Source: a virus. From it: a stretch of DNA of 64,000 bases. The position numbers and the translations under genes are program-made. Within the stretch, counting starts at the first letter, position 1; each line of letters begins with the position of its first letter. Under the pieces are notes generated by a model, which was given only the letters and a program-made list of their open reading frames with translations, was not told the origin of the DNA and did not search any database. The DNA lies in IMG/VR virus record IMGVR_UViG_3300045988_159911; one strand, written 5' to 3'. Shown one piece after another: positions 4,343-64,000 of the stretch.

Positions 4343-4987
4343 TTAAATGATGTCGTTGATTGTGCAGTCCTCACCAATGATATAGTCGGTTACGCCGAGC
4401 TTCTTTGCTTCATCAGCGAACATATACCATTCCTTACGCATCTGTGAATCGTACATTTCAGAGGTAATCTCTGTTCTGGAGAGCACATACTGCTTAATGC
4501 GCTCTTCCATTCGCTTGTTAAACTCCATCTGATCCTGAGCCTTTGCACCGGAGTTATAGATAAACTGGGAACCGTCGTGCATCAGGAACTTTGCATGGGG
4601 CATTGCAAAGCGCTTGTGACCGGCAAGACCGATCAGAAAACCCATTGAATACTGATATCCCTGATTGATAACATAAACAGGAGTTTCACTACTGAGAATC
4701 ACATCAATCAGCGCAAAACCTGCATCAACATCACCACCATTGGAAGTGACATACAAAATGATAGGCTTGCGGTCTTCACGGGCAACCCCCATGTCCTCTC
4801 TGTTGATCTGCATGATGTGACGAATGGCATCATCAACTGTCTCCTGACAGATGTTTGTTGAAATGAACAGCTTACGCTGTTTAAGGTCTCTCAGATAGAA
4901 AACATCTTCAACAAAGCCACTCTTAAGCAGTGCCTCTTCAAACTCGATTTCGATATCGTAGTAGGTATCCGAGTTTCTCTTATCCAT
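4343..4987 (-). CDS. ClpP-family serine protease
   Basis: ILYVTSNGGDVDAGFALIDVI...YSMGFLIGLAG...AKFLMHDG matches ClpP Ser/His motif spacing. RBS AAGGAGG. Confidence 0.6.
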   Translation of the reverse strand: MDKRNSDTYYDIEIEFEEALLKSGFVEDVFYLRDLKQRKLFISTNICQETVDDAIRHIMQINREDMGVAREDRKPIILYVTSNGGDVDAGFALIDVILSSETPVYVINQGYQYSMGFLIGLAGHKRFAMPHAKFLMHDGSQFIYNSGAKAQDQMEFNKRMEERIKQYVLSRTEITSEMYDSQMRKEWYMFADEAKKLGVTDYIIGEDCTINDII

Positions 4988-16866: not shown

Positions 16867-17637
16867 TTATTTACTCATGGCGAAGTATTCGCATTCATCG
16901 CAGAAATCGCAGAGATAACGACACTTCCAGAAATCTAACTTTGGTGACCAATCTTCGTTGTTGGTAATGGTCTCAATACTGTCTGCAGCCCACTGCTTTG
17001 CTCGTTCCAATTCTTCTTCCCGAAAGGGCTCGGAAATCAACTGACCTGTTCTGTAACAATTGAATTCCAACCGCGCAGGATAGCAGTGAAATGTGTCTTT
17101 GATCGGAATGCTGTATAAATAAAGCTGGCGAAGATACTCGTCCAGCTCAGCATCAGATTTGGTTGGCTTCTTTCGTTTGGAACGCTCTTTTAGTGCTCGT
17201 GACTTATTGTCCACCAGAATGATACCGTCTTCATCTTTGGCAACACAGTCAATGATGCCAGTGAACGGCTTGTCTCCGATCTTAAATTCCACCTTATGCT
17301 CTACACACAAGGGGTCTGGATAGGGGAACTTGATATCGCTTAGATAAGAGAGACCCTGTTCAAAATAGGATTTGAAGATGTCTCTGTTTGGTGCGATACC
17401 ACGAACCTCCCTTTTGAACCGAGCCAGATACTCACCAACAAGTTCGTCTTTTTTAAGCTTGCCGGTGAGATACTGCTCGATCAGTTTATGTATGAATGAA
17501 CCATAGTCCGAAAAGAACAACGGTTTCTTTGGCGTATGCTTAATATAGTTAAGTAGGAAAGCATACGGACACATCTCAAATTGATTGATACGAGAATAAG
17601 ACCATGTGAAATCAGAGATGATGTTTGAATATTTCAC
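16867..17637 (-). CDS. PD-(D/E)xK nuclease, Cas4/RecB-like exonuclease with a 4-Cys cluster
   Basis: N-terminal CPYAF; C-terminal CRYLCDFCDECEY; central IIDCVAKDEDGIILVDNKS nuclease motif. Confidence 0.55.
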   Translation of the reverse strand: MKYSNIISDFTWSYSRINQFEMCPYAFLLNYIKHTPKKPLFFSDYGSFIHKLIEQYLTGKLKKDELVGEYLARFKREVRGIAPNRDIFKSYFEQGLSYLSDIKFPYPDPLCVEHKVEFKIGDKPFTGIIDCVAKDEDGIILVDNKSRALKERSKRKKPTKSDAELDEYLRQLYLYSIPIKDTFHCYPARLEFNCYRTGQLISEPFREEELERAKQWAADSIETITNNEDWSPKLDFWKCRYLCDFCDECEYFAMSK

Positions 17638-17653
17638 AAGTCATCACCACCGA

Positions 17654-18043
17654 TTAGAACGGCAGATCGTCTTCGTCAACTTCGCCCTCTTCAGCAAGAG
17701 CAGCCTTTTTCTTGGTTGTGGGAGTAGCAGTGCCTGCAGTGGGAGTGGAACCGTCAGCCATCTCAAAACCAAAGACCTTGTAGTTGACATACTCAACCTT
17801 CTTTTCCTTATCGTAGGTTGTGCCAACATCACACTCCAGAATCTTGATGCGATCCTTTTCCTTCAGATGTGCAGCCATCTCATGTGCCTGACCAATAAAG
17901 GTGCAGAAACCAGAGAAATCCTGCTCATACTCGTCTGTCTTCTTGTTCTTGCGGCTGGAAGAAAGACGAACTCGGGTGGTGCTGCCGGACTTGCTCGGCT
18001 CAGCAGACCACACTGTCATATAACCGCCCTGTCGAAAACCCAT
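17654..18043 (-). CDS. SSB-like protein with an acidic C-terminal DDLPF tail
   Basis: C-terminus EEGEVDEDDLPF matches the SSB tail. True start is probably the internal ATG (MTVWSAEP...). Confidence 0.5.
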   Translation of the reverse strand: MGFRQGGYMTVWSAEPSKSGSTTRVRLSSSRKNKKTDEYEQDFSGFCTFIGQAHEMAAHLKEKDRIKILECDVGTTYDKEKKVEYVNYKVFGFEMADGSTPTAGTATPTTKKKAALAEEGEVDEDDLPF

Positions 18044-18046
18044 AAC

Positions 18047-18763
18047 TTATTCCTCCTTGTTGTTTGTAATCTCAGCCTTCAGCGCGTTCAGAAGTTCTGT
18101 TGCCACGACAGGAGACTCGATTGCGTAGTAGTTTGCGGTTGCCTTACCGTTTTCCTTGACATACTTCTTGGTGAGTGCAACAATCTTCTGTTTATCATCA
18201 GGATTTGCGGCGAGATGATCGGTTACCAGCTTGTGGATCTGGTCTACGATCTTTTCTGCAATCAGACGATCTTCCTGATTCTCGGCCTCGCGCTGACGGC
18301 TACGCCAGTTATCGGGGTCGTCATCGGATGTTGCAACATTGAAATACTTCAACAGGAAGTAACGGGAAGCATAAGTAAGTGCAGAGCCAAACGCCTGACT
18401 GGCATCTGACTGAGAGCCAACGAAGAGCCAGGGAACAACAACGCGATCCTCGGGGTTCTCGTCATTGACCCAAATCCAGTCCATGTCTGCACGAACCATG
18501 ACCTCATTGATGTGCTCTTCGTAAGTTTTTCCGTCCTTGGTAGCCTTTGTCTTGGTGTAGTGATAGGGTTCTACAACGGCGGAACCGTGAGTGATGTTGG
18601 GGATCAATGAGACACCATATTTCCCCATTAGACCTGTGATTTTGGAGAGGATCTCTTCCTCATCCACATATGTATAGCCGTAACCCTTGCGGTTTTTCTT
18701 TACGACTTCGACGGGCTTGCGGATCTTGGCAAGCTTCTGATAGATGTTCAAAACCTCTGACAT
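18047..18763 (-). CDS. ERF-family single-strand annealing protein
   Basis: SQAFGSALTYASRYFLLKYFNVATSDDD matches the ERF core (QxxGSxxTYxRRY...DDD); N-terminal NRKGYGYTYV. Confidence 0.7.
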   Translation of the reverse strand: MSEVLNIYQKLAKIRKPVEVVKKNRKGYGYTYVDEEEILSKITGLMGKYGVSLIPNITHGSAVVEPYHYTKTKATKDGKTYEEHINEVMVRADMDWIWVNDENPEDRVVVPWLFVGSQSDASQAFGSALTYASRYFLLKYFNVATSDDDPDNWRSRQREAENQEDRLIAEKIVDQIHKLVTDHLAANPDDKQKIVALTKKYVKENGKATANYYAIESPVVATELLNALKAEITNNKEE

Positions 18764-18765
18764 AT

Positions 18766-19335
18766 TTACTCCTTCTTCTCGACGATAAAAGTAGCTGCTT
18801 CATCAGCAACATGGATGAGCCAAGCAAGAGGAAACTGCTCGAAAGCATTTCCAACATCCTTGTTGCCATCCCATGACGCCATGTGGCAGTTGATTGAAAC
18901 AGCTTCTTCCGGTGTCAGGTTCATAAAGTTCTGAATGATAAACACCGACTTGCTGCCGTGCCCACCGTAACAAAGCTTTTCTTTGATTGAGTAGGCATCG
19001 TAGCTTTCCCACTGACCTGCGCTGTTCTTTCTGTTGCGCTTTTCGGTCGTGTAGAAATTGACCTTACAAAGATCGTGAAACAGTGATACGATACGGATCG
19101 TGGACTCGCTAACACTGACACTGTCACCGTAAATCTCCAGCAGACGCTTCAGCTCGTCGTATACATTCAAAGAATGCTCCAACAAACCTCCGGCGTAATT
19201 GCCGTGGAACTTGGTGCTTGCCGGCGCCGAATAGAAATCGCTCTTTTCAAGCCACTCCATCAGCTCGTGCATACCGTCGCGGTCAATGTCATTGCACAGC
19301 GAAATAAAACGCTCCTTGTTGGTCATGGCGACCAT
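18766..19335 (-). CDS. HD-domain phosphohydrolase
   Basis: FHGNYAGGLLEHSLNV...LFHDLCK carries the H...HD metal-binding motifs. Confidence 0.65.
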   Translation of the reverse strand: MVAMTNKERFISLCNDIDRDGMHELMEWLEKSDFYSAPASTKFHGNYAGGLLEHSLNVYDELKRLLEIYGDSVSVSESTIRIVSLFHDLCKVNFYTTEKRNRKNSAGQWESYDAYSIKEKLCYGGHGSKSVFIIQNFMNLTPEEAVSINCHMASWDGNKDVGNAFEQFPLAWLIHVADEAATFIVEKKE

Positions 19336-19346
19336 CTCCTTTCATT

Positions 19347-19688
19347 CTAAAATCTGAGTTTCTCGGTATACCGAACTACACAGTTCAAAACTTCATAATC
19401 GATACCCGGCTCATGCAAAACCTTGTGGAAAGCATGACCACGAGCATTCTGACTTGCGCTGAGAACTTTGATATAGCTCCCATTTTTGAACTCTATAAAA
19501 GAGCTGTTGGCATTTCTTACTGCTCGATGTGTTGCTTTCTGTTCTTCTTCATCCATGCTCTCAAGCAATTCCAGACAAACGGATAACCTGTTGGCCTGTG
19601 TTCTGGTGAAGATACCGACACAAAACCTTTCCTTGTTCGCACATTCGCGAACTGCGGTAAGCATGGTGAGATAATTGAGTTCCTGCAT
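19347..19688 (-). CDS. Hypothetical protein
   Basis: 113-aa ORF. Confidence 0.3.
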   Translation of the reverse strand: MQELNYLTMLTAVRECANKERFCVGIFTRTQANRLSVCLELLESMDEEEQKATHRAVRNANSSFIEFKNGSYIKVLSASQNARGHAFHKVLHEPGIDYEVLNCVVRYTEKLRF

Positions 19689-19814
19689 CGTGTTCTCCTT
19701 GCCAAATGCGTGTTTTATATGGATTATAGAAATACTGCACCTATCGGACTTAAAGCCGATTTCAAGCCATTAACAGGTGTCACCAAAACGAAAGACTTTG
19801 GAAAACTTACTGCT

Positions 19815-20009
19815 TCAAAGCTTGATAAACTTCTTTTCAAGAGCCTGCGGATTCTTATCCTTGCCGAGCTTTACAAACTTGCCGTCCTTCAGCTCATAGA
19901 GGAAATAGAAATCTCTTGCCGGCTTTGAAGTTGTGATATAACGAAGATTGTGGTCTTTGTCATAATGACCGACCCAAACAATTTCTCCCTTAGGATACTG
20001 ATATTCCAT
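19815..20009 (-). CDS. Hypothetical small protein
   Basis: 64-aa ORF. Confidence 0.25.
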   Translation of the reverse strand: MEYQYPKGEIVWVGHYDKDHNLRYITTSKPARDFYFLYELKDGKFVKLGKDKNPQALEKKFIKL

Positions 20010-20042
20010 CTTGTCGCCTCATATTTAAGTATTGATATGCAA

Positions 20043-20075
20043 GAAAAAGAAGAGGTCGCGAAACCTCTTCTTAAA
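20043..20075. terminator. Bidirectional rho-independent terminator
   Basis: 8-bp stem GAAGAGGT/ACCTCTTC with loop CGCGAA, flanked by an A-run and T-rich sequence. Confidence 0.5.
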
Positions 20076-20094
20076 CCGCTGTTCAGTTTATGCC

Positions 20095-20508
20095 CTACTT
20101 TTGAAAGATGAGCGTTACCCCCAACGGGATGTCGTACAGAATCCTTTCGCCGTCATAATCCAAAAGCTTCTTTTCATCGTTTTCTGACACAAGTTCAATA
20201 AAAGTGTCTTCGACGATATATGTGCCGGTTACTTCAAATGCTTTTCCGTTTTCACTACGAACCATGTGGACTGATCCGTCTTTTGTAAACCTTAGAGTGG
20301 TTTCGCTCCATTCAAGTAGAGAGTAACCACATTGCTCACAGAGATCCATAACATCTGATGCGTCATACACTGTGCCATCATACTCATATTCGCTTACTTT
20401 CCAAGTGCCTGACACAGACGAATCTGTCTTCGTGCAAGAAGCACATAGTACCAAACAGATGAAGGTTAGGAACACTACAATTATTTTGTTACGCAACATT
20501 GTAGTCAC
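20095..20508 (-). CDS. Lipoprotein
   Basis: Signal peptide plus lipobox (LVLCASC) at the N-terminus; 137 aa. Confidence 0.5.
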   Translation of the reverse strand: MTTMLRNKIIVVFLTFICLVLCASCTKTDSSVSGTWKVSEYEYDGTVYDASDVMDLCEQCGYSLLEWSETTLRFTKDGSVHMVRSENGKAFEVTGTYIVEDTFIELVSENDEKKLLDYDGERILYDIPLGVTLIFQK

Positions 20509-21462
20509 CTACCTTGTAAACGCCGCTTTCCAACACTCGTAGTCGTCTTCAAGATCACGACGAATACCGTTGGCAAGCTTATTCCTGGTGTAGTTACGGT
20601 GGTACTGGTGGTCTGTTTTACCCATACGCTCAACAATGAATGCGTCGAAATTCACTGGCTCTCCAAACCTTTCCATCTCATAGGTCTTATAGAAGAGGCC
20701 AGACAGACGGATTTTACCATACGATGTTTCAATACCTTCGGCCTTAAACTTCTTACCAATGACTGCCCTTATGGTAGTGAGCTTGATCTGAGCGGAACGA
20801 ATTCCTCTCAAAAGATGCTCGCCCGGATACCTGTTACGATACCCACCCTGCTTACCATCAGTATAGTTTGGGTTAACATAGCGAAACTCTGTAGCGTTGC
20901 AGGCCATCTTAAAGGCAGGAACTGCTTCACGATAGATCTCATAAGACTTTCCGCCATGTTCAATCGTCATGGTGTCAAAGTCTACTTCATCGACTGTTAC
21001 CTCAATCGCTTCTGCTTCTTCAATGCCTGCAAAACCCATCCAGAGATAACATCTGTATAGACAGTCTACTGTTTCGCTTGCTACCGGTTCAAAGATCTTA
21101 TTGAGTATGGCTTCGAGATGGATTGGAGAAGCTATCATCATGCGTTTCATCTTCTCGTCCATCTCAGTTTTCAGCTCATACACATCGCTACAGGTAGGAT
21201 AACCTTGTTCTTTGCACCAGCCGACATACGATCTCAAAAAGGCTATGGTTGAGTCCGTCGTTCTTGTACGGGAGCCAAACTTCGCATTAGCAATAGGCTG
21301 TAGGATGTCCACAGTAAGTTCGCAGAGATCCTTTTCCTCTTTCTGCTCATAGGGCTCTATGGTGTTGAACACAGACTTGCCAAAGTCTACTGAACTTCTC
21401 ATTTCGGTCAAAAACCGCATCTTTCGCTCTTCGTTATACATGGGAACCTCCTTACGCAGCAC
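20509..21462 (-). CDS. Hypothetical protein; weak, divergent resemblance to a tyrosine recombinase
   Basis: 317 aa with faint integrase-like blocks (SAM-like N-terminal domain, HLLRGIR, HQYHRNY), but the catalytic Arg is absent. The call is not secure. Confidence 0.25.
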   Translation of the reverse strand: MLRKEVPMYNEERKMRFLTEMRSSVDFGKSVFNTIEPYEQKEEKDLCELTVDILQPIANAKFGSRTRTTDSTIAFLRSYVGWCKEQGYPTCSDVYELKTEMDEKMKRMMIASPIHLEAILNKIFEPVASETVDCLYRCYLWMGFAGIEEAEAIEVTVDEVDFDTMTIEHGGKSYEIYREAVPAFKMACNATEFRYVNPNYTDGKQGGYRNRYPGEHLLRGIRSAQIKLTTIRAVIGKKFKAEGIETSYGKIRLSGLFYKTYEMERFGEPVNFDAFIVERMGKTDHQYHRNYTRNKLANGIRRDLEDDYECWKAAFTR

Positions 21463-60134: not shown

Positions 60135-60214
60135 ACCAGGCGGGAAACCGCCTGACCGTAGAAAGGAAAGGAAGCCGAAAGCCAAAGCATTCAGCAAAAG
60201 TCGCCATGTGGCGA

Positions 60215-60303
60215 TGGCGGAGAGGGTGGGATTCGAACCCACGGAGGTTTTACCCTCGCCGGTTTTCAAGACCGGTTCCTTAAACCAGCTCGAACACCTC
60301 TCC
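60215..60303 (-). tRNA. tRNA-Ser(TGA), type II
   Basis: ...GGAACCGGTCTTGAAAACCGGCGAGGG...GGGTTCGAATCCCACCCTCTCCGCCA, similar to E. coli tRNA-Ser(TGA). Confidence 0.75.
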
Positions 60304-60307
60304 TTAT

Positions 60308-60535
60308 TCAATAGATGGCGACCGTTTTGGTGAACAGAAGATACAGACCCAGGGGAGCAGTCAGCAGAACTGCGGTTGCATCTTTATCTTCAACCGTGGT
60401 TCCCTGAGAAGCTATGTAAATGAGCAGGATGCTCATGGCGATCAGCGCCAAACCATAAAGCTTCTGGATAAACAGCTTCTTGCGACGGATCTGATTGCGG
60501 GTTCTCTTACTAACAGCTTGCGTGCTCATTTTCAA
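60308..60535 (-). CDS. Small two-helix membrane protein
   Basis: 75 aa with LALIAMSILLIYIA and LLTAPLGLYLLF helices. Confidence 0.3.
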   Translation of the reverse strand: MKMSTQAVSKRTRNQIRRKKLFIQKLYGLALIAMSILLIYIASQGTTVEDKDATAVLLTAPLGLYLLFTKTVAIY

Positions 60536-61026
60536 ACCTCCTCAGAATACGGATACTGAATAACTTTGTCCCCATCAACGATGGGGTGACGAATGGAAAA
60601 CCCATATGCGTCGTAGAGATATTCCTCAAACGCAGATGCGATTTCCTCAATGCAGTCATCATCGAAGCACTCGTCCGGTTCGCACTCCAACAGAACGGAG
60701 AGGTAATCAATGGTTGCGCTGTGGATTTCTCCAAGTCGGTCAAGGTCTTCTGCATCCAAAACCTCATCGCTATCGGTTTCGCAGATGTAGAGATTGAGAA
60801 GCTGCGAGTAAACCTTTTCGATTTCAGCTTCAGAACTTGCTTTGGCTTCGTATTCAACGACTCCGTCCACTTCAACCGTGAAGTAAGGCAAACCCTCTTC
60901 CTCGGTGATGTAAACCTCGGCGCTAACCTCTGCTTCATCAGCGACCAAGCGATATTCGCTCTGCAGGGCAAACCGATTTTCGTTGTAGAACTTTCGGATC
61001 TCGCCAACAGATACAATCGCTGCCAT
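60532..61026 (-). CDS. Hypothetical acidic protein
   Basis: Internal ATG 61026 with RBS AAAAGGAGGTG gives MAAIVSVGEI... Confidence 0.4.
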   Translation of the reverse strand: MAAIVSVGEIRKFYNENRFALQSEYRLVADEAEVSAEVYITEEEGLPYFTVEVDGVVEYEAKASSEAEIEKVYSQLLNLYICETDSDEVLDAEDLDRLGEIHSATIDYLSVLLECEPDECFDDDCIEEIASAFEEYLYDAYGFSIRHPIVDGDKVIQYPYSEEV

Positions 61027-61111: not shown

Positions 61112-61337
61112 AAAACCCCTCTTGAGAACAGGTAAGCAGCCGATTCACAAGAGGGGAATTTCCCCCGCGTTCAGGTGTTAATGCGGGATTGTTTAATCAA
61201 TCATAAACTTTAATCATTTGGATAACACCTGCCCAAAGCAAGAGGTCAGCGCTAACCCCTCACTCTCCGCATTTCGGGAATCTTTTCGCATACGGTACGC
61301 CGCGTCAAGGCTCGTCGCGGAAAACCCTGCCAGGGAT

Positions 61338-61410
61338 GTGACATGAGCAAGGCTCGAACTTGCGACACGCCGGTCATATCCGGCTGCTCTACCGACTGAG
61401 CTATCATGCC
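61338..61410 (-). tRNA. tRNA-like gene, putative anticodon TAT (Ile-AUA?), with a non-canonical G32-A33 anticodon loop
   Basis: GGCATGATAGCTCAGTCGGTAGAGCA-GCCGG-GATATGA-CCGGC-GTGTC-GCAAGTTCGAGCCTTGC-TCATGTCA. The acceptor, D, anticodon and T stems are all perfect, but the loop lacks U33 and no CCA is encoded. Confidence 0.4.
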
Positions 61411-61625: not shown

Positions 61626-61913
61626 CGTAACAACTCCTTTCGTATTGAATTTTGAAACCTGGGAGACGCGCTCCACCGACCGCCATTGTGGCGGTTATCG
61701 TCTTAATTTTCAAAGACTCATCAGGGTGGCTCTACCCACGGCAACAAAAGGAGCAAGGCAAATTGTTTTCTGTTTGAGAACTTGTCTGCCTCTGCACACT
61801 TGCGAGGAGATTACAAGTCGGTTTAATTCATAAGACCTTGCAGCTTTCGTTTTCCGTTTTTGGGCATAAAAAAGACCCTCCAGAGAAACCGGAAGGTCTT
61901 GATAGGGAAAAGC

Positions 61914-62300
61914 TTATTCAGTTGTTTTGAAAACGCCCTTAACCGTTACGGACGCTCTAACGGTGCCGTCATTCAACGGCAAAATCTCGAATGTGTTGCA
62001 TCTGCTCAAAACCTCTTTGAGCCTCAAAGCTCCATCCTTGTCCAGGTGGATCGCAGGAACTTCAACGGTAACGCTTCCAGAGGTAAAGTTCGGGAACAGC
62101 TTCAGCTCCGGCAGAGTTCCAATCAGGCTGGAAACCTCAGTGAAAACCTGGCTCAAAACCTCATACCGTTCCGGGACAATTTCCTTGTTCTCATTGCCCT
62201 CGGTCACAGCGGAATACAACAAGGCTTCAAAAACCTCGCCAAACTCGTACAGATTTCTCACACTCCTCTCGTTTTTCAAATCGTGCTTATTATAGCACAA
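61914..62300 (-). CDS. Hypothetical protein; start uncertain (non-ATG), ORF as given in the track
   Basis: 128-aa ORF beginning at a TTG. A sigma-70-like promoter overlaps its 5' end, so the true start is downstream. Confidence 0.3.
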   Translation of the reverse strand: MCYNKHDLKNERSVRNLYEFGEVFEALLYSAVTEGNENKEIVPERYEVLSQVFTEVSSLIGTLPELKLFPNFTSGSVTVEVPAIHLDKDGALRLKEVLSRCNTFEILPLNDGTVRASVTVKGVFKTTE

Positions 62301-62317
62301 ATCGGATCGTTTTTCAA
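62289..62317 (-). promoter_or_regulatory. Sigma-70-like promoter (TTGAAA, 17 nt, TATAAT) on the minus strand
   Basis: Minus strand reads TTGAAAaacgatccgatttgtgcTATAAT, lying 17 nt downstream of repeat copy C. Confidence 0.5.
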
Positions 62318-62333: not shown

Positions 62334-62388
62334 CTCTGCGTTTACACGGACTTGTGACCGTTTGCAAAACCTTTGCAAGTCGCATTAG
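62334..62388 (-). repeat. Conserved-flank, covarying-hairpin motif, copy C
   Basis: CTCTGCGTTTACACGGACTTGTGACCG, hairpin TTGCAAaaccTTTGCAA, then GTCGCATTAG. Confidence 0.45.
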
Positions 62389-62422
62389 GCGCGGAGAGCC
62401 GAAACCCTCCGCGTTTGGGGAT

Positions 62423-63262
62423 TTATGCGGCAGCTTCAGCCTTCTTGACAACAACGGTCTCGGCTTCAGCAACCTTCTTGGAAGCCTTGGGCTTGGTCTG
62501 CTTGGCGGTTTCGGTCTTAGGTTCGGAACCTTCAGCCACATTGGAAGTGCGCTTGTGGTCGACACCGTAAGTGCCATTGGTAACTACGCGATGGAACACA
62601 TCCATCAGCAAGCTCTGGAGGATGGTGTGCTTGGAACAGATAACCCTCAGAGCGGTCTTGTTGTTCTTCTTGGCGTAACAGAGCCAGATGTAAGCCAGGT
62701 CGTGGCTGTTCACGCGACCTTCGCCTTCGGAAAGAGAGTCCAAAACCTTCTGGATGTGCTTCACGCACTGGGTATCGGAAGTCGGGGTCTTGCCAAGGTC
62801 GATTTCGGCAGCCAGTTTATCCATGCTATAACTGTCGTCGATGGATTTCATTTCCTTTGCGGAAACCCCAAGCTCGGTGGCAGCCTTGAGGGTCAGGCGC
62901 TTGTTAAGAGCCTGCATCTCATAGAACCAACCCATGTCCAGGCTCTTGTACTCGCAGAACTTGCGGAGGTCAATCTGAACCATACGCTCAGACTTTTCGA
63001 CGCCGGTCATAACGCCGTCCTCGGAGATCTTCTTGTGGGAAATGGTGGTGAAGTGGTGCTGCACGAGTGCTTCGTGAACATCAGCACAAGAAGCGAAAAC
63101 CTCCTTCTCACGAAGGGCGCGGTAATCGTTCTCGATGTTCTTCAGCTCGGTAAGCTTGCCCTCAACCTCTGCGGCGGTGCCTTTGGCACAAATCTTGTTG
63201 ACCTCGGCGATTTTCGCCTCATAATCGGCAAGAAGTCGGGCTTTAATGTCTTTTGTTGCCAT
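62423..63262 (-). CDS. Hypothetical protein with a basic Ala/Lys-rich C-terminal tail
   Basis: 279 aa; tail KPKASKKVAEAETVVVKKAEAAA. RBS AAAGGAG. Confidence 0.4.
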   Translation of the reverse strand: MATKDIKARLLADYEAKIAEVNKICAKGTAAEVEGKLTELKNIENDYRALREKEVFASCADVHEALVQHHFTTISHKKISEDGVMTGVEKSERMVQIDLRKFCEYKSLDMGWFYEMQALNKRLTLKAATELGVSAKEMKSIDDSYSMDKLAAEIDLGKTPTSDTQCVKHIQKVLDSLSEGEGRVNSHDLAYIWLCYAKKNNKTALRVICSKHTILQSLLMDVFHRVVTNGTYGVDHKRTSNVAEGSEPKTETAKQTKPKASKKVAEAETVVVKKAEAAA

Positions 63263-63830
63263 AGTTCTTACTCCTTTATGGTTTATTTATGGGCAAGCCC
63301 ATAATGAAGCGCAGTAACCCTTGTGGAGCTACTGCGCTCGATATAGACTTGCGTAGCAAGGGCAAGCCCCTGCGCGCATAAACTTTTTGGTTGACAAATC
63401 ATGCTCGCTCAAGTAATTCCCCTGGTCGCCTTACACCTGCGCTATACACCTCCTTGAAGCTTTCACGCATAACACCCAACTCTACCACGATAGAGGCATC
63501 CTTGATACCTAAACCGCTTAACGGCTTTATCAAATGCTGCTCAGAAACCAGGCTGCATAAGTGAGCCAACACTTATTCACTTGCGCTTATTCATATCGCT
63601 CAAAGGTCATAGTGACTATAACCTATTGCCGAGAACTCAATACTACCCGCGTTCAGTATCCGCGCACTCTGAGCCTAACTCTCAGAATTTTTGGCTGACC
63701 TTCTCTTATGGCGGTTGAAGCCGCACTCGTGGTAAGAGTACCCTTCTTTTGGTGGCAAAAGTACCCCTTGTGTATGCCCATCAAGGTGGCGCGTTGGATC
63801 GCTCAACCAAGTAAAAACCTGGTCGAACCA

Positions 63831-63888
63831 CTCTGCATTTATACGGGCTTGTGACCGTTCGCCGGAAACCTCCGGCAAGCTGCATTAG
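63831..63888 (-). repeat. Conserved-flank, covarying-hairpin motif, copy D
   Basis: CTCTGCATTTATACGGGCTTGTGACCG, hairpin GCCGGaaacctCCGGC, then AAGCTGCATTAG. Confidence 0.45.
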
Positions 63889-63921
63889 TTCTTTGGGTCT
63901 TTCCGTGTGCGCTTTTGCGCT

Positions 63922-64000
63922 CGTTTCGGTTGCCCCATATACACGCACACGGCTGTATGTCACCCTGTGCGGTGTGGCTGTCCGTTTCGGTTGCCCCATA
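63922..64000. repeat. Direct repeat, two copies of the 18-mer CGTTTCGGTTGCCCCATA about 60 bp apart at the window edge
   Basis: Copies at 63922-63939 and 63983-64000, in a noncoding region. Confidence 0.4.

Follow-up and report, generated by a model that had tools for sequence, protein, structure and literature searches.

The four copies of a repeated motif on the minus strand of a 64,000-nt stretch of DNA from an uncultured phage (the window, analysed in full) are, with near certainty, type-P1 twister ribozymes (RF03160), and the motif as a whole is very probably best explained by type-P1 twister self-cleaving ribozymes lying within phage minus-strand messages. All four copies match the RF03160 covariance model over its full length (positions 1-68), with scores of 48.3-65.3 bits; the E-values run from 1.1e-13 to 7.9e-9 when 4.5 kb is searched, and from 1.6e-12 to 1.1e-7 for the whole window. 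None of the four, the best at 65.3 bits, reaches the curated RF03160 gathering score of 67.2 bits, which is an annotation threshold and not a structural feature. A default Rfam scan at gathering thresholds returned tRNAs only; the twisters surface when an E-value threshold is used.

A direct check of the sequence found the four copies on the minus strand where the initial annotation had placed them. Their 14-nt core, CGGTCACAAGCCCG, is present at all four sites with 0-2 mismatches; one further match at this level lies on the same strand of the 64-kb window (4609-4622), and at up to 3 mismatches there are 12 matches against 3.4 expected, a number reached in 0 of 100 shuffles. The short flanking boxes by themselves occur at chance level, whereas the combination of boxes is above chance. 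Searches of the whole window found no fifth copy of the repeat. The ends of the copies had been set too far in: the true elements are longer by 3 nt on the 5' side and 6 nt on the 3' side because the 4-bp closing helix, P1, had been missed. The full elements span 63891-63825 (D), 62391-62328 (C), 61114-61060 (B), and 60137-60077 (A), all on the minus strand.

We used the published definitions of the stems and pseudoknots, of the U-A cleavage step, of the dispensability of P1, and of P3 as optional in active twisters; in this scheme, the essential stems are P1, P2, and P4, and loop L4 forms the 3-bp pseudoknot T1 with L1 and the 2-bp pseudoknot T2 with L2 (PMC5408937). P1, P2, and P4 occur in all four copies and are recovered in MFE folds. 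The open helix, in which the 5' and 3' ends lie, is P1, and P3 and P4 are closed by loops, which places the copies in the P1 permutation type. Boxes CUAAUGCAGC and AAAUGCAGAG, both conserved, hold the two P2 strands as well as the site of cleavage and the strands of the pseudoknots. The recurring UGCA is self-complementary and forms P2, and ACGG..CCGU forms P4. The hairpin of variable sequence between the boxes is the optional stem P3. It had been described as always present; it is found in A, C, and D and is absent from B, where the GCCA/TGGC stem suggested earlier would close a loop of 1 nt. In the twister fold these bases form the GC strand of T2 and the start of P4, so copy B lacks P3.

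The nucleotides UAA, GC, GGU.(.)CAAGCC, AAA, and GAG are conserved in every copy, and the only changes in the core are compensated pseudoknot positions and a U-to-G change in the variable junction of copy B. T1 reads CAC/GUG in B, C, and D and UGC/GCA in A (consensus CCC/GGG), and T2 reads GC/GC in A, B, and D and AC/GU in C. P2 in copy C is UGCG/CGCA and P4 in copy B is GCGG/CCGC, with G-C for A-U; both are compensated. The compensated pseudoknot positions appear as consensus mismatches in the RF03160 alignments and make up part of the shortfall in score there; we infer that the nested model scores them as plain mismatches.

Twister D, of the P1 type with P3, has the highest score (65.3 bits, E 1.1e-13) and a predicted cut at U63887/A63886; its MFE fold shows P1, P2, P3, and P4, and its T1 is CAC/GUG. 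Orthologues of D occur at L068:309-372 and at L027:2412-2484, where T1 is CCC/GGG. Twister C, also with P3 (58.1 bits, E 1.2e-11; predicted cut U62387/A62386), has a weak P1 of 3 bp whose first pair competes with an upstream hairpin; its orthologue, L027:3999-4064, has T1 CUC/GAG. Twister B, without P3, scores 48.3 bits (E 7.9e-9; predicted cut U61110/A61109) and carries a 3-nt insertion and the U-to-G change in the P4-P2 junction. This junction is variable across the family, and the B version, AUGAGAAA, is also found in 6 viral matches. Twister A, with P3 (55.8 bits, E 5.8e-11; predicted cut U60133/A60132), has a T1 that is doubly compensated relative to B, C, and D.

Three of the copies are preceded by a hairpin on the same strand. 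At C, a hairpin at 62390..62413 (CGCGGAG..CUCCGCG) abuts P1 with a 2-nt overlap and is consistent with the optional stem P0, which we take to be placed 5' of P1. A P0-like hairpin at B (61116..61156; CCCCUCUUG..CAAGAGGGG) ends 1 nt upstream of P1; the 40 nt upstream of this twister have an MFE of -16.2 kcal/mol (z -3.6), and the hairpin together with the U-rich P1 strand resembles a weak terminator. At A, a P0-like hairpin (60137..60154; CAGGCGG-UUUC-CCGCCUG) abuts P1, and copy D has no abutting hairpin. P0 is among the optional twister stems that have been listed (PMC5408937).

A model built from the four copies retrieved 132 twisters from the window and 99 viral loci, and we used the 113 distinct sequences among them for covariation. 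In these, 97.3% of pair cells are paired, compared with 79.7% in shuffled sequences and 15-44% when the partners are slid. Compensatory change is seen at 16 of 19 pairs, and the observed values were reached in 0 of 500 shuffles; the expectation of the initial annotation that structure rather than sequence is conserved thus holds in additional copies. The stems P1, P2, and P4 are paired in 89.6, 99.3, and 99.3% of cases, respectively, with compensatory changes. T1 is 99.7% paired, with C-G in 98 sequences and U-A in 15 at one pair and A-U in 95, G-C in 12, and C-G in 4 at another; T2 is 98.7% paired (G-C in 100, A-U in 11). Neither pseudoknot was part of the search model, and the partner columns that vary (13, 116, 117) lie outside the retrieval pattern. 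Among the 132 matches, UAA is present at the cleavage site in 126 and P3 is absent in 59. A crude six-frame ORF test, to which we give supporting weight only, shows the twisters depleted from ORFs (27% against 61% same-strand coverage).

At least two twisters occur in 25 of the 100 viral sources, and neighboring pairs are co-oriented in 31 of 32 cases, at a median spacing of 923 nt. The structure found upstream of A, B, and C is also a feature of this larger set. In a non-redundant set of 98 viral twisters, the 40-nt segment on the 5' side has a mean z of -1.9; for four control windows the mean is -0.2 to -0.4 (P about 1e-9 to 1e-11). Of 66 strong cases, 50 have a hairpin that stops 0-1 nt short of P1, and the least structured window is the 40 nt 3' of the twister. 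When about 24 related twister matches were scanned with Rfam, none reached 67.2 bits; a strict twister pattern finds at least 120 IMG/VR viral contigs. The phage sub-group with A-U or G-C as the middle T1 pair is thus systematically under the Rfam cut-off, yet common, and default annotation misses these twisters.

The copies are part of an array. All four are intergenic both by our own reading of the ORFs and by the genes called on L121, the longer contig from which the window comes, and the suggestion that the element acts as RNA on the coding strand and marks transcript boundaries stands. A putative type I hammerhead ribozyme lies at 61673..61729 (minus strand; a weak Hammerhead_3 match of 20.2 bits). 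With it, the array would number five ribozymes from two classes within 3.8 kb, all intergenic, on the coding strand, and at gene boundaries. Its parts are, in order, the open stem I (CCACC/GGUGG), the core CUGAUGA, stem II (GUCUU/AAGAC), stem III (CCGCC/GGCGG), and GUC, with a U13a insertion that gives GAUAA for GAAA and a predicted cut after C61678. A U13a variant of the hammerhead has been described and argued to be tolerated (PMC3088659); two relatives, L088 and L027 (5221-5277), have the canonical CGAAAC, and stems I and II show compensatory changes.

Several signals noted earlier around the copies are present. The TTGAAA-17-TATAAT site after copy C (62289..62317, minus strand) is sigma-70-like, with 11 of 12 matches and an upstream TG, and begins 10 nt past P1 of this copy; C is the only copy of the four with a promoter-like site nearby. 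Two terminator-like hairpins (60071-60038 and 60036-60008, minus strand) lie directly 3' of twister A, and terminators are found 5' of the hammerhead as well as 3' of twister A; some of the ribozymes may be transcribed only by read-through. An RBS and ATG (61026) lie downstream of copy B, the end of which is 33 nt before this start codon of a 164-aa gene. On the same strand, a tRNA-like gene with a 6-nt anticodon loop (61338..61410) lies 223 nt upstream of twister B, and tRNA-Ser(UGA) (60215..60303) ends 77 nt before the start of twister A.

Related loci keep this arrangement. In L027, L057, and L133, at about 66% protein identity, all four boundaries have their twister and the hammerhead is present too, with compensatory substitutions. 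All four twisters are kept in L131 (95%) and L134 (93%), and L068 keeps copy D, the sole boundary that its sequence covers. At 30-47% protein identity, a twister is still found 3' of the gene for the 279-aa protein family described below. A search of INPHARED phages gave a tRNA-Ser match only, and thus no close cultured relative; a scan of GTDB gave two metagenome-assembled genomes, labelled Bacteroides (on an 11.8-kb contig) and Firmicutes.

The initial annotation had proposed an activator or repressor site, a phage promoter element, or a nut/put-like RNA; none of these fits, and the twister fold accounts for the whole motif. An operator, activator site, or phage-specific promoter element would be read as double-stranded DNA. 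The location of the copies at unit boundaries, the strong promoter-like site 10 nt from copy C, and the two AATGCAG boxes, which resemble a direct repeat, would suit such an element. The boxes, however, pair with each other in an RNA helix, since UGCA is self-complementary, and the promoter-like site is near one copy of four. Positions roughly 30-50 nt apart covary, including those of two pseudoknots, and they pair as Watson-Crick or G-U on one strand only; these wobbles and compensatory changes over such distances argue that the motif is not a DNA-binding site. Given in addition the full-length and highly significant match to a ribozyme model, a DNA-level element has next to no chance of being the right reading. 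Antitermination by a nut/put-like RNA, in which a linear box and a stem-loop modify RNA polymerase, would also work at the RNA level, and copies A and B do lie near terminator-like hairpins. We consider it extremely improbable, however: the twister fold explains every conserved nucleotide, the linear boxes pair together as P2, the stem-loop is dispensable (it is missing in copy B and in 59 of the 132 viral copies), and what does not vary is the catalytic core of the twister and its pseudoknots.

Two further readings accept an RNA fold of this kind. The copies could descend from twisters and have lost cleavage, as decaying elements or as structured RNA spacers; every copy is under the Rfam gathering score, B has a junction insertion and no P3, and P1 is weak in C. 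But active twisters can do without P1 and need not have P3 (PMC5408937), all strongly conserved core nucleotides are intact, the deviations are compensated, and compensatory change keeps the folds at the same boundaries in relatives, making loss of cleavage very unlikely. The ribozymes could instead mature tRNAs, by analogy with the HDV-like theta ribozymes found beside phage tRNAs, which set a precedent (PMC10879173). A and B are each downstream of a tRNA gene on the same strand, and in L028 a tRNA-like gene lies 67 nt before a twister. The gaps of 77 and 223 nt are nevertheless too long to set a tRNA 3' end, C, D, and the hammerhead have no tRNA nearby, and a tRNA of any kind is found in 11 of 60 twister-bearing viral loci; we regard this role as very improbable.

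As self-cleaving twisters, the copies would be transcribed as part of the phage minus-strand messages and would fold through P1, P2, and P4 (with P3 in A, C, and D), T1 and T2 tying the P4 loop to two internal loops. Following established twister biochemistry, the 2'-OH of the U adjoining P1 would attack the adjacent phosphate, and the RNA would be cut between U and A (63887/63886, 62387/62386, 61110/61109, and 60133/60132). The upstream piece would end in a 2',3'-cyclic phosphate and the downstream piece would start with a 5'-OH inside the folded ribozyme. Judging from their sequences, self-cleavage of A, C, and D is very likely, and that of B is somewhat less so.

The five predicted cuts in the array would split the transcript or transcripts of the 3.8-kb region into gene-sized pieces: the leader with the 279-aa gene, the 115-aa gene, a 73-aa gene with the tRNA, and the 164-aa and 73-aa genes with tRNA-Ser. 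At A, B, and C the upstream piece would end in the hairpin that abuts P1, and each downstream piece would carry the compact ribozyme body first and then weakly structured sequence. With a hairpin at the end of one piece and a ribozyme at the head of the next, the stability and translation of the pieces could differ. In Firmicutes, a 5'-OH end can promote decay, as in the precedent of glmS and RNase J1, so an effect on stability could go in either direction. Segmentation of the transcript is the best available inference as to role, and we see the case for it as evenly balanced. Tandem hammerheads flanking prophage genes cleave in vitro and in E. coli (PMC3088659), and transcript processing has been suggested as the role of bacterial twisters and hammerheads (PMC6765202), although published accounts leave the biological function of phage and bacterial twisters undecided (PMC6765202, PMC5408937). 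After cleavage, the 3' fragment of a twister reportedly keeps its 5' end hidden inside the fold (PMC8782182).

The first of these pieces contains a 279-aa gene (62423..63262, minus strand), between twisters D and C, with 131 unnamed homologues; its stop codon is 31 nt from the start of twister C. Searches of Pfam, PHROG, NCBIfam, and PDB sequences gave no match for this gene and nothing usable for the other flanked genes, and no recognizable fold was found for the 279-aa protein. A peptide-pattern search of viral contigs returned no relative, a false negative of that method: local tblastn on the loci retrieved with the twister pattern did find relatives. A twister lies 3' of the gene in every relative with enough downstream sequence, down to 30% identity.

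Between twister D and the 279-aa gene is an untranslated structured leader of 562 nt (63263..63824, minus strand). It is conserved in L068, L027, and L131, with 13 of 64 predicted pairs compensated among about three distinct sequences. A scan of metagenomes for leader homologues with a 19-base pattern gave six loci. L130 (99% identical), L131 (about 95%), and L133 (the same as L027) are homologues that add little diversity; L128, L129, and L132 were rejected as chance matches with no similarity around the pattern. RAGATH RNAs are RNAs associated with genes associated with twister and hammerhead ribozymes. The window leader has a partial match to RAGATH-16 (63686-63652, model positions 28-61; 19.6 bits against a gathering score of 65.6) and no match to the RAGATH-4 model, whereas the orthologous leader in L027 scores 73.3 bits against RAGATH-4 (gathering score 104.4). 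In distant relatives, RAGATH-16 and RAGATH-4 are both above the gathering score in the leader of the 279-aa family, as is RAGATH-36 downstream. Compared with these RNAs, the window leader has diverged, and it carries deletions when set against that of L027; its sequence resembles RAGATH-16 and RAGATH-4, and we do not file it as a member of either family.

Down to 30% protein identity, genes of the 279-aa family are accompanied by the leader motifs and by a downstream twister. This protein family, its RAGATH-16/-4-type leader, and the twisters might by analogy form one conserved RNA-protein module, in which the cuts would release a defined, structured leader that works with the protein; RAGATH-18 offers a precedent, having turned out to be the guide RNA of IS607 TnpB (PMC11061315). 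We think such a module unlikely. In a variant of it, an RtcB-type ligase would rejoin or circularize the segments bounded by ribozymes through their 5'-OH and 2',3'-cyclic-phosphate ends. The upstream twister is missing in three distant relatives (L006, L037, and L085), so a leader 5' end defined by a ribozyme is not universal.

The repeat family is thus a known catalytic RNA and not a new regulatory motif. The locus is compact and its relatives keep it, which makes it a convenient natural system for studying the function of phage and bacterial twisters and hammerheads. The layout of a hairpin against P1, the ribozyme, and weakly structured sequence downstream gives a checkable prediction on the ends and stability of the processed RNAs.

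Theta (minimal HDV-like) ribozymes abut tRNAs, whereas the twisters here are 77-223 nt from a tRNA or have none near. They are likewise small self-cleaving ribozymes in tRNA-bearing phage genomes (PMC10879173), but of a different class. Self-cleavage in a 5' UTR that leaves a 5'-OH on the coding fragment is known from glmS, a precedent for cleavage governing mRNA fate (PMC6765202); glmS involves a metabolite cofactor and a single leader, whereas nothing suggests ligand control here.

The twister RF03160 (Roth et al, 2014, as reviewed in PMC5408937 and PMC6765202) has the same core and P1 termini as the copies described here, and the same order of parts: P1, the UAA junction, P2, the T2 strand, optional P3, P4 with a 10-nt L4, the AAA junction, P2', the T1 strand, and P1'. 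It is also found near hammerheads and phage-type genes, as here. Relative to its consensus, the middle T1 pair is A-U (G-C in A) instead of C-G and T2 is A-U in C; together with the short P3 stems, these differences put all of the copies below the Rfam cut-off. The tandem hammerheads of prophages (Perreault et al, 2011; PMC3088659) are also same-strand ribozymes about 1 kb apart that bracket single small genes of unknown function or short gene blocks, and the putative hammerhead here carries the U13a core insertion that the same paper describes. In contrast to them, four of the five ribozymes here are twisters, and two classes are mixed in one array. A ribozyme array at phage gene boundaries is an arrangement already described for phage-related DNA.

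Given their sequences, the four minus-strand repeats, copies D (63891-63825), C (62391-62328), B (61114-61060) and A (60137-60077), are type-P1 twister ribozymes. Copy D reads GAAC-UAA-UGCA-GC-[UUGCCGG..CCGGCGA]-ACGG-UCACAAGC-CCGU-AUAAA-UGCA-GAGUG-GUUC; copy C, (C)GCC-UAA-UGCG-AC-[UUGCAA..UUGCAA]-ACGG-UCACAAGU-CCGU-GUAAA-CGCA-GAGUG-GGC(A); copy B, UUUC-UAA-UGCA-GC-CAAUG-GCGG-UCACAAGC-CCGC-AUGAGAAA-UGCA-GAGUG-GAAA; and copy A, GGUC-UAA-UGCA-GC-[UUUGG..CCAAA]-ACGG-UUGCAAGC-CCGU-GUAAA-UGCA-GAGCA-GACC. The initial annotation had described a motif of about 55 nt; its consensus, positions and intergenic placement hold on the minus strand, as do the promoter-like site beside copy C (62317-62289), the terminator-like hairpins after copy A and the RBS after copy B. 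It overlooked a 4-bp closing helix, so that every element is 9 nt longer than it stated. A motif search, which it had proposed, shows that the 14-nt core is enriched on the minus strand of the window: there are 12 matches at three or fewer mismatches where 3.4 are expected, a count reached in 0 of 100 shuffles. All four copies match with 0-2 mismatches, and the sole other match at two or fewer is at 4609-4622.

A default Rfam scan of the window returned tRNAs only and no twister. When an E-value threshold was applied, all four copies matched the type-P1 twister family, RF03160, over its full length (65.3, 58.1, 55.8 and 48.3 bits; E 1e-13 to 8e-9), slightly below its curated cut-off of 67.2 bits. 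The roughly 24 twister-P1 matches that Rfam lists (40.9-65.3 bits, E 1e-13 to about 1e-5) all fall short of that score; they come from the window, its longer source contig L121 and the phage loci L024, L027, L037, L057, L068, L085, L088, L006, L026, L106, L126 and L127; with scores below the gathering score, this phage sub-group is systematically missed by default Rfam annotation.

We mapped the repeats onto the twister fold as defined in a review (PMC5408937). The two "conserved flanks" of the initial annotation include both strands of stem P2, where UGCA resembles a direct repeat because it is self-complementary, and the UAA junction is the location of the U-A cleavage step. ACGG/CCGU forms P4, and its 10-nt loop L4, GUCACAAGCC, pairs with GAGUG in pseudoknot T1 and with the GC 3' of P2 in pseudoknot T2. 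The "variable hairpin" is the optional stem P3; it had been ascribed to every copy, and we find it in A, C and D, with no central hairpin in B. Minimum free energy folds recover P1, P2, P3 and P4 in D and C, P1, P2 and P4 in B, and P1 and P2 in A.

Among the four copies, all differences at normally invariant positions are compensated: T1 is CAC/GUG in B, C and D and UGC/GCA in A, T2 changes from the usual GC/GC to AC/GU in C, P2 from UGCA/UGCA to UGCG/CGCA in C, and the first pair of P4 from A-U to G-C in B. A strict pattern for this variant matched viral contigs in IMG/VR, at least 120 of them. A covariance model derived from the four copies, also a check that had been proposed, found 132 twisters in the window and 99 of the at least 120 viral loci listed; the rest of the loci yielded a further 47. 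When the pair count on 113 distinct sequences includes both pseudoknots, 97.3% of cells are paired, compared with 79.7% in shuffles and 15-44% with slid partners; 16 of 19 pairs show compensatory changes, and 0 of 500 shuffles reached the observed value on any measure. T1 is 99.7% and T2 98.7% paired in these sequences (C-G/U-A, A-U/G-C/C-G, G-C/A-U), which is an independent check, since the pseudoknots are absent from the model and the varying partner columns lie outside the retrieval pattern. P3 is absent from 59 of the 132 viral copies (about half), as in copy B, and B's junction AUGAGAAA is found again in six of them.

A fifth predicted self-cleaving ribozyme of the locus lies at 61729-61673 on the minus strand, 52 nt upstream of the ATG of a 73-aa gene. 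Its layout (stem I CCACC/GGUGG, core CUGAUGA, stem II GUCUU/AAGAC, GAUAA, stem III CCGCC/GGCGG and GUC) is that of a probable hammerhead of type I carrying a U13a insertion. GAUAA replaces GAAA, giving one extra U, which is probably tolerated according to Perreault et al. (PMC3088659). Its counterparts in two relatives (L088:9-69 and L027:5221-5277) have a canonical GAAAC core and compensatory changes in stems I and II.

The window is a section of a phage or prophage that exceeds 100 kb and is known from metagenomes only, and L121 is the same contig (ENA ERZ27229424 k115_115878). On the coding strand, twister D is followed by a 562-nt leader, the 279-aa gene, a hairpin, twister C and the promoter-like site; then by the 115-aa gene, a terminator, the hammerhead, a 73-aa gene, a tRNA-like gene, a hairpin and twister B; and then by the 164-aa gene, another 73-aa gene, tRNA-Ser, a hairpin, twister A and two terminators. 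The flanked genes have no match in Pfam, PHROGs, NCBIfam or PDB. The 279-aa protein (gene 62423-63262) is a member of an unnamed family that comprises at least 131 metagenomic sequences (including P0001-P0120) and lacks a Pfam domain, and its AlphaFold model (pLDDT 77.5) has no convincing PDB match. The 164-aa protein (60532-61026, minus), encoded 3' of twister B, has an extremely acidic composition (43 D+E vs 9 K+R, pI 4.05), such as occurs in DNA-mimic anti-restriction proteins. ArdA is known to be encoded near prophage hammerheads (PMC3088659). The tRNA-like gene (61338-61410, minus) has a 6-nt anticodon loop, AUAUGA, that ARAGORN could not assign; in L027 the orthologous gene encodes an ordinary tRNA-Ile(GAU), whose loop has 7 nt. 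The window's version may have decayed, or it may make an unusual tRNA that still functions. Its 5' end overlaps the stop codon of the preceding 73-aa ORF by 7 nt (61404-61410; ..AUG GCA UGA = GGCAUGA of the acceptor stem). Another tRNA-like gene, which ARAGORN likewise reads with a two-base anticodon, lies 67 nt before a twister in an unrelated contig (L028:8512-8585).

The ribozymes are conserved at the same boundaries in relatives. All four twisters are kept in L131 and L134 (95% and 93% identity to the 279-aa protein), and in L027, L057 and L133 (~66% protein and ~69% DNA identity) none of the four boundaries has lost its twister, and the hammerhead is retained together with a tRNA upstream of the position of copy B. 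The sequence available for L068 covers one boundary only, that of copy D, where the twister is present. The changes between orthologues are compensatory: T1 is CAC/GUG vs CCC/GGG in D and CAC/GUG vs CUC/GAG in C, and T1, P2 and P4 all change together in A. A twister follows the 279-aa-family gene in every relative with enough downstream DNA available, down to 30% identity, including L135 (47%) and L024, L037, L085, L006, L026 and L106 (~30%). In all of these ~30% loci except L106, which has RAGATH-16 only, the leader contains RAGATH-16 and then RAGATH-4, both above the gathering score, in constant order and 117-176 nt apart; a single long leader RNA may contain both as domains. Downstream of the 73-aa membrane-protein homologue, L024, L037, L085 and L026 carry RAGATH-36, and L006 and L026 have a hammerhead-like match below the gathering score between gene and twister. 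With twisters, hammerheads and RAGATH motifs in its relatives, the locus is a typical twister- and hammerhead-associated neighbourhood, as in the literature. The untranslated leader (63263-63824, minus; L027:2485-3106; L068:373-936) shows both conservation and structure: of its 64 predicted pairs, 13 are compensated in a comparison of about three distinct sequences. Its match to Rfam in the window is a partial RAGATH-16 alone (positions 28-61, 19.6 bits). In L131 (13200-13488), two blastn pieces covering the leader are ~290 nt apart vs 20 nt in the window, which suggests a ~270-nt insertion in its 3' part.

The initial annotation had considered a DNA operator or promoter element and a nut/put-like antitermination RNA; both are contradicted by the long-range, strand-specific covariation and by a stem-loop that proves dispensable. 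That the copies are inactive relics of twisters is unlikely: their cores are intact, and in relatives they have evolved by compensatory change at the corresponding boundaries. A theta-like role in tRNA processing fails as well: the tRNA-twister gaps of 77 and 223 nt are too distant, and only 11 of the 60 loci listed have any tRNA.

We infer that the ribozymes segment the phage transcript or transcripts into gene-sized RNAs. All five are intergenic and co-oriented with the genes, and two unrelated classes occupy equivalent positions. The arrangement in other viral contigs also argues for this role: 25 of 100 viral sources among the matches listed have at least two twisters, and neighbouring pairs are on the same strand in 31 of 32 cases, with a median spacing of 923 nt. 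Across 98 non-redundant viral twisters, the 40 nt 5' of the ribozyme are unusually structured (mean z -1.9 vs -0.2 to -0.4 in four control windows), and the 40 nt 3' of it are the least structured. Among 66 strong cases, 50 have a gap of 0-1 nt between the 5' hairpin and P1. In twisters, stem P0 lies 5' of P1. The abutting hairpin is consistent with P0, an optional stem listed in the review (PMC5408937).

Cleavage is predicted at 63887/63886, 62387/62386, 61110/61109 and 60133/60132 for the twisters and at 61678/61677 for the hammerhead. The upstream RNA would then end in the hairpin, 4-5 nt and a cyclic phosphate, and the downstream RNA would start with the twister body. With glmS in Firmicutes, there is precedent for decay of a 5'-OH RNA. 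In twisters, the nucleophile is the 2'-OH of the U adjoining P1, which attacks the neighbouring phosphate. The candidate general base is a conserved G and the candidate general acid is the A on the 3' side of the cut; cleavage leaves a 2',3'-cyclic phosphate on one product and a 5'-OH on the other (PMC5408937). The 5' end of the downstream fragment is reported to be buried (PMC8782182).

Past the window end, L121 contains a gene for an ECF-like sigma factor, which has a perfect sigma-70 promoter of its own and an intrinsic terminator, then two tandem copies of a ~60-nt repeat and then twister D. These repeats, the "first repeat family" of the initial annotation (ACCGCACAGGGTGACATACAGCCGTGTGCGTGTATATGGGGCAACCGAAAC), run from 63905-64000 into L121:9205-9340, with a third partial copy at L121:8196-8235. 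They contain GTGACA-16 nt-TATATG and are not accepted as sigma-70 promoters by the promoter tool, so they may serve as operators or as promoters read by a sigma factor or RNA polymerase of the phage itself. Were transcription to begin at these repeats, cleavage by twister D would strip the first ~45-110 nt, along with the 5' triphosphate, from the RNA. Farther upstream, on the opposite strand, are an integrase, a YonV_C protein and an 893-aa PF05183 "RdRP" protein, which we take to be a YonO-type single-subunit RNA polymerase; given this context, part of the element's genome may be transcribed by its own polymerase. Genes in L121:1-8000 and 17400-20840 encode the PF05183 protein, YonV_C, phage integrase, ThiF, DUF6273 and a reverse transcriptase (RVT_1).

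Earlier work has described the twister class, its clusters with hammerheads close to phage genes, and the RAGATH motifs as neighbours. What is new is limited to these copies, unannotated below the Rfam cut-off, and a small quantitative observation of the hairpin-ribozyme-open-leader arrangement. Transcript processing of this kind has been proposed for bacterial twisters (PMC6765202) and for hammerheads arranged in tandem in prophages, whose cleavage has been seen both in vitro and within E. coli (PMC3088659).
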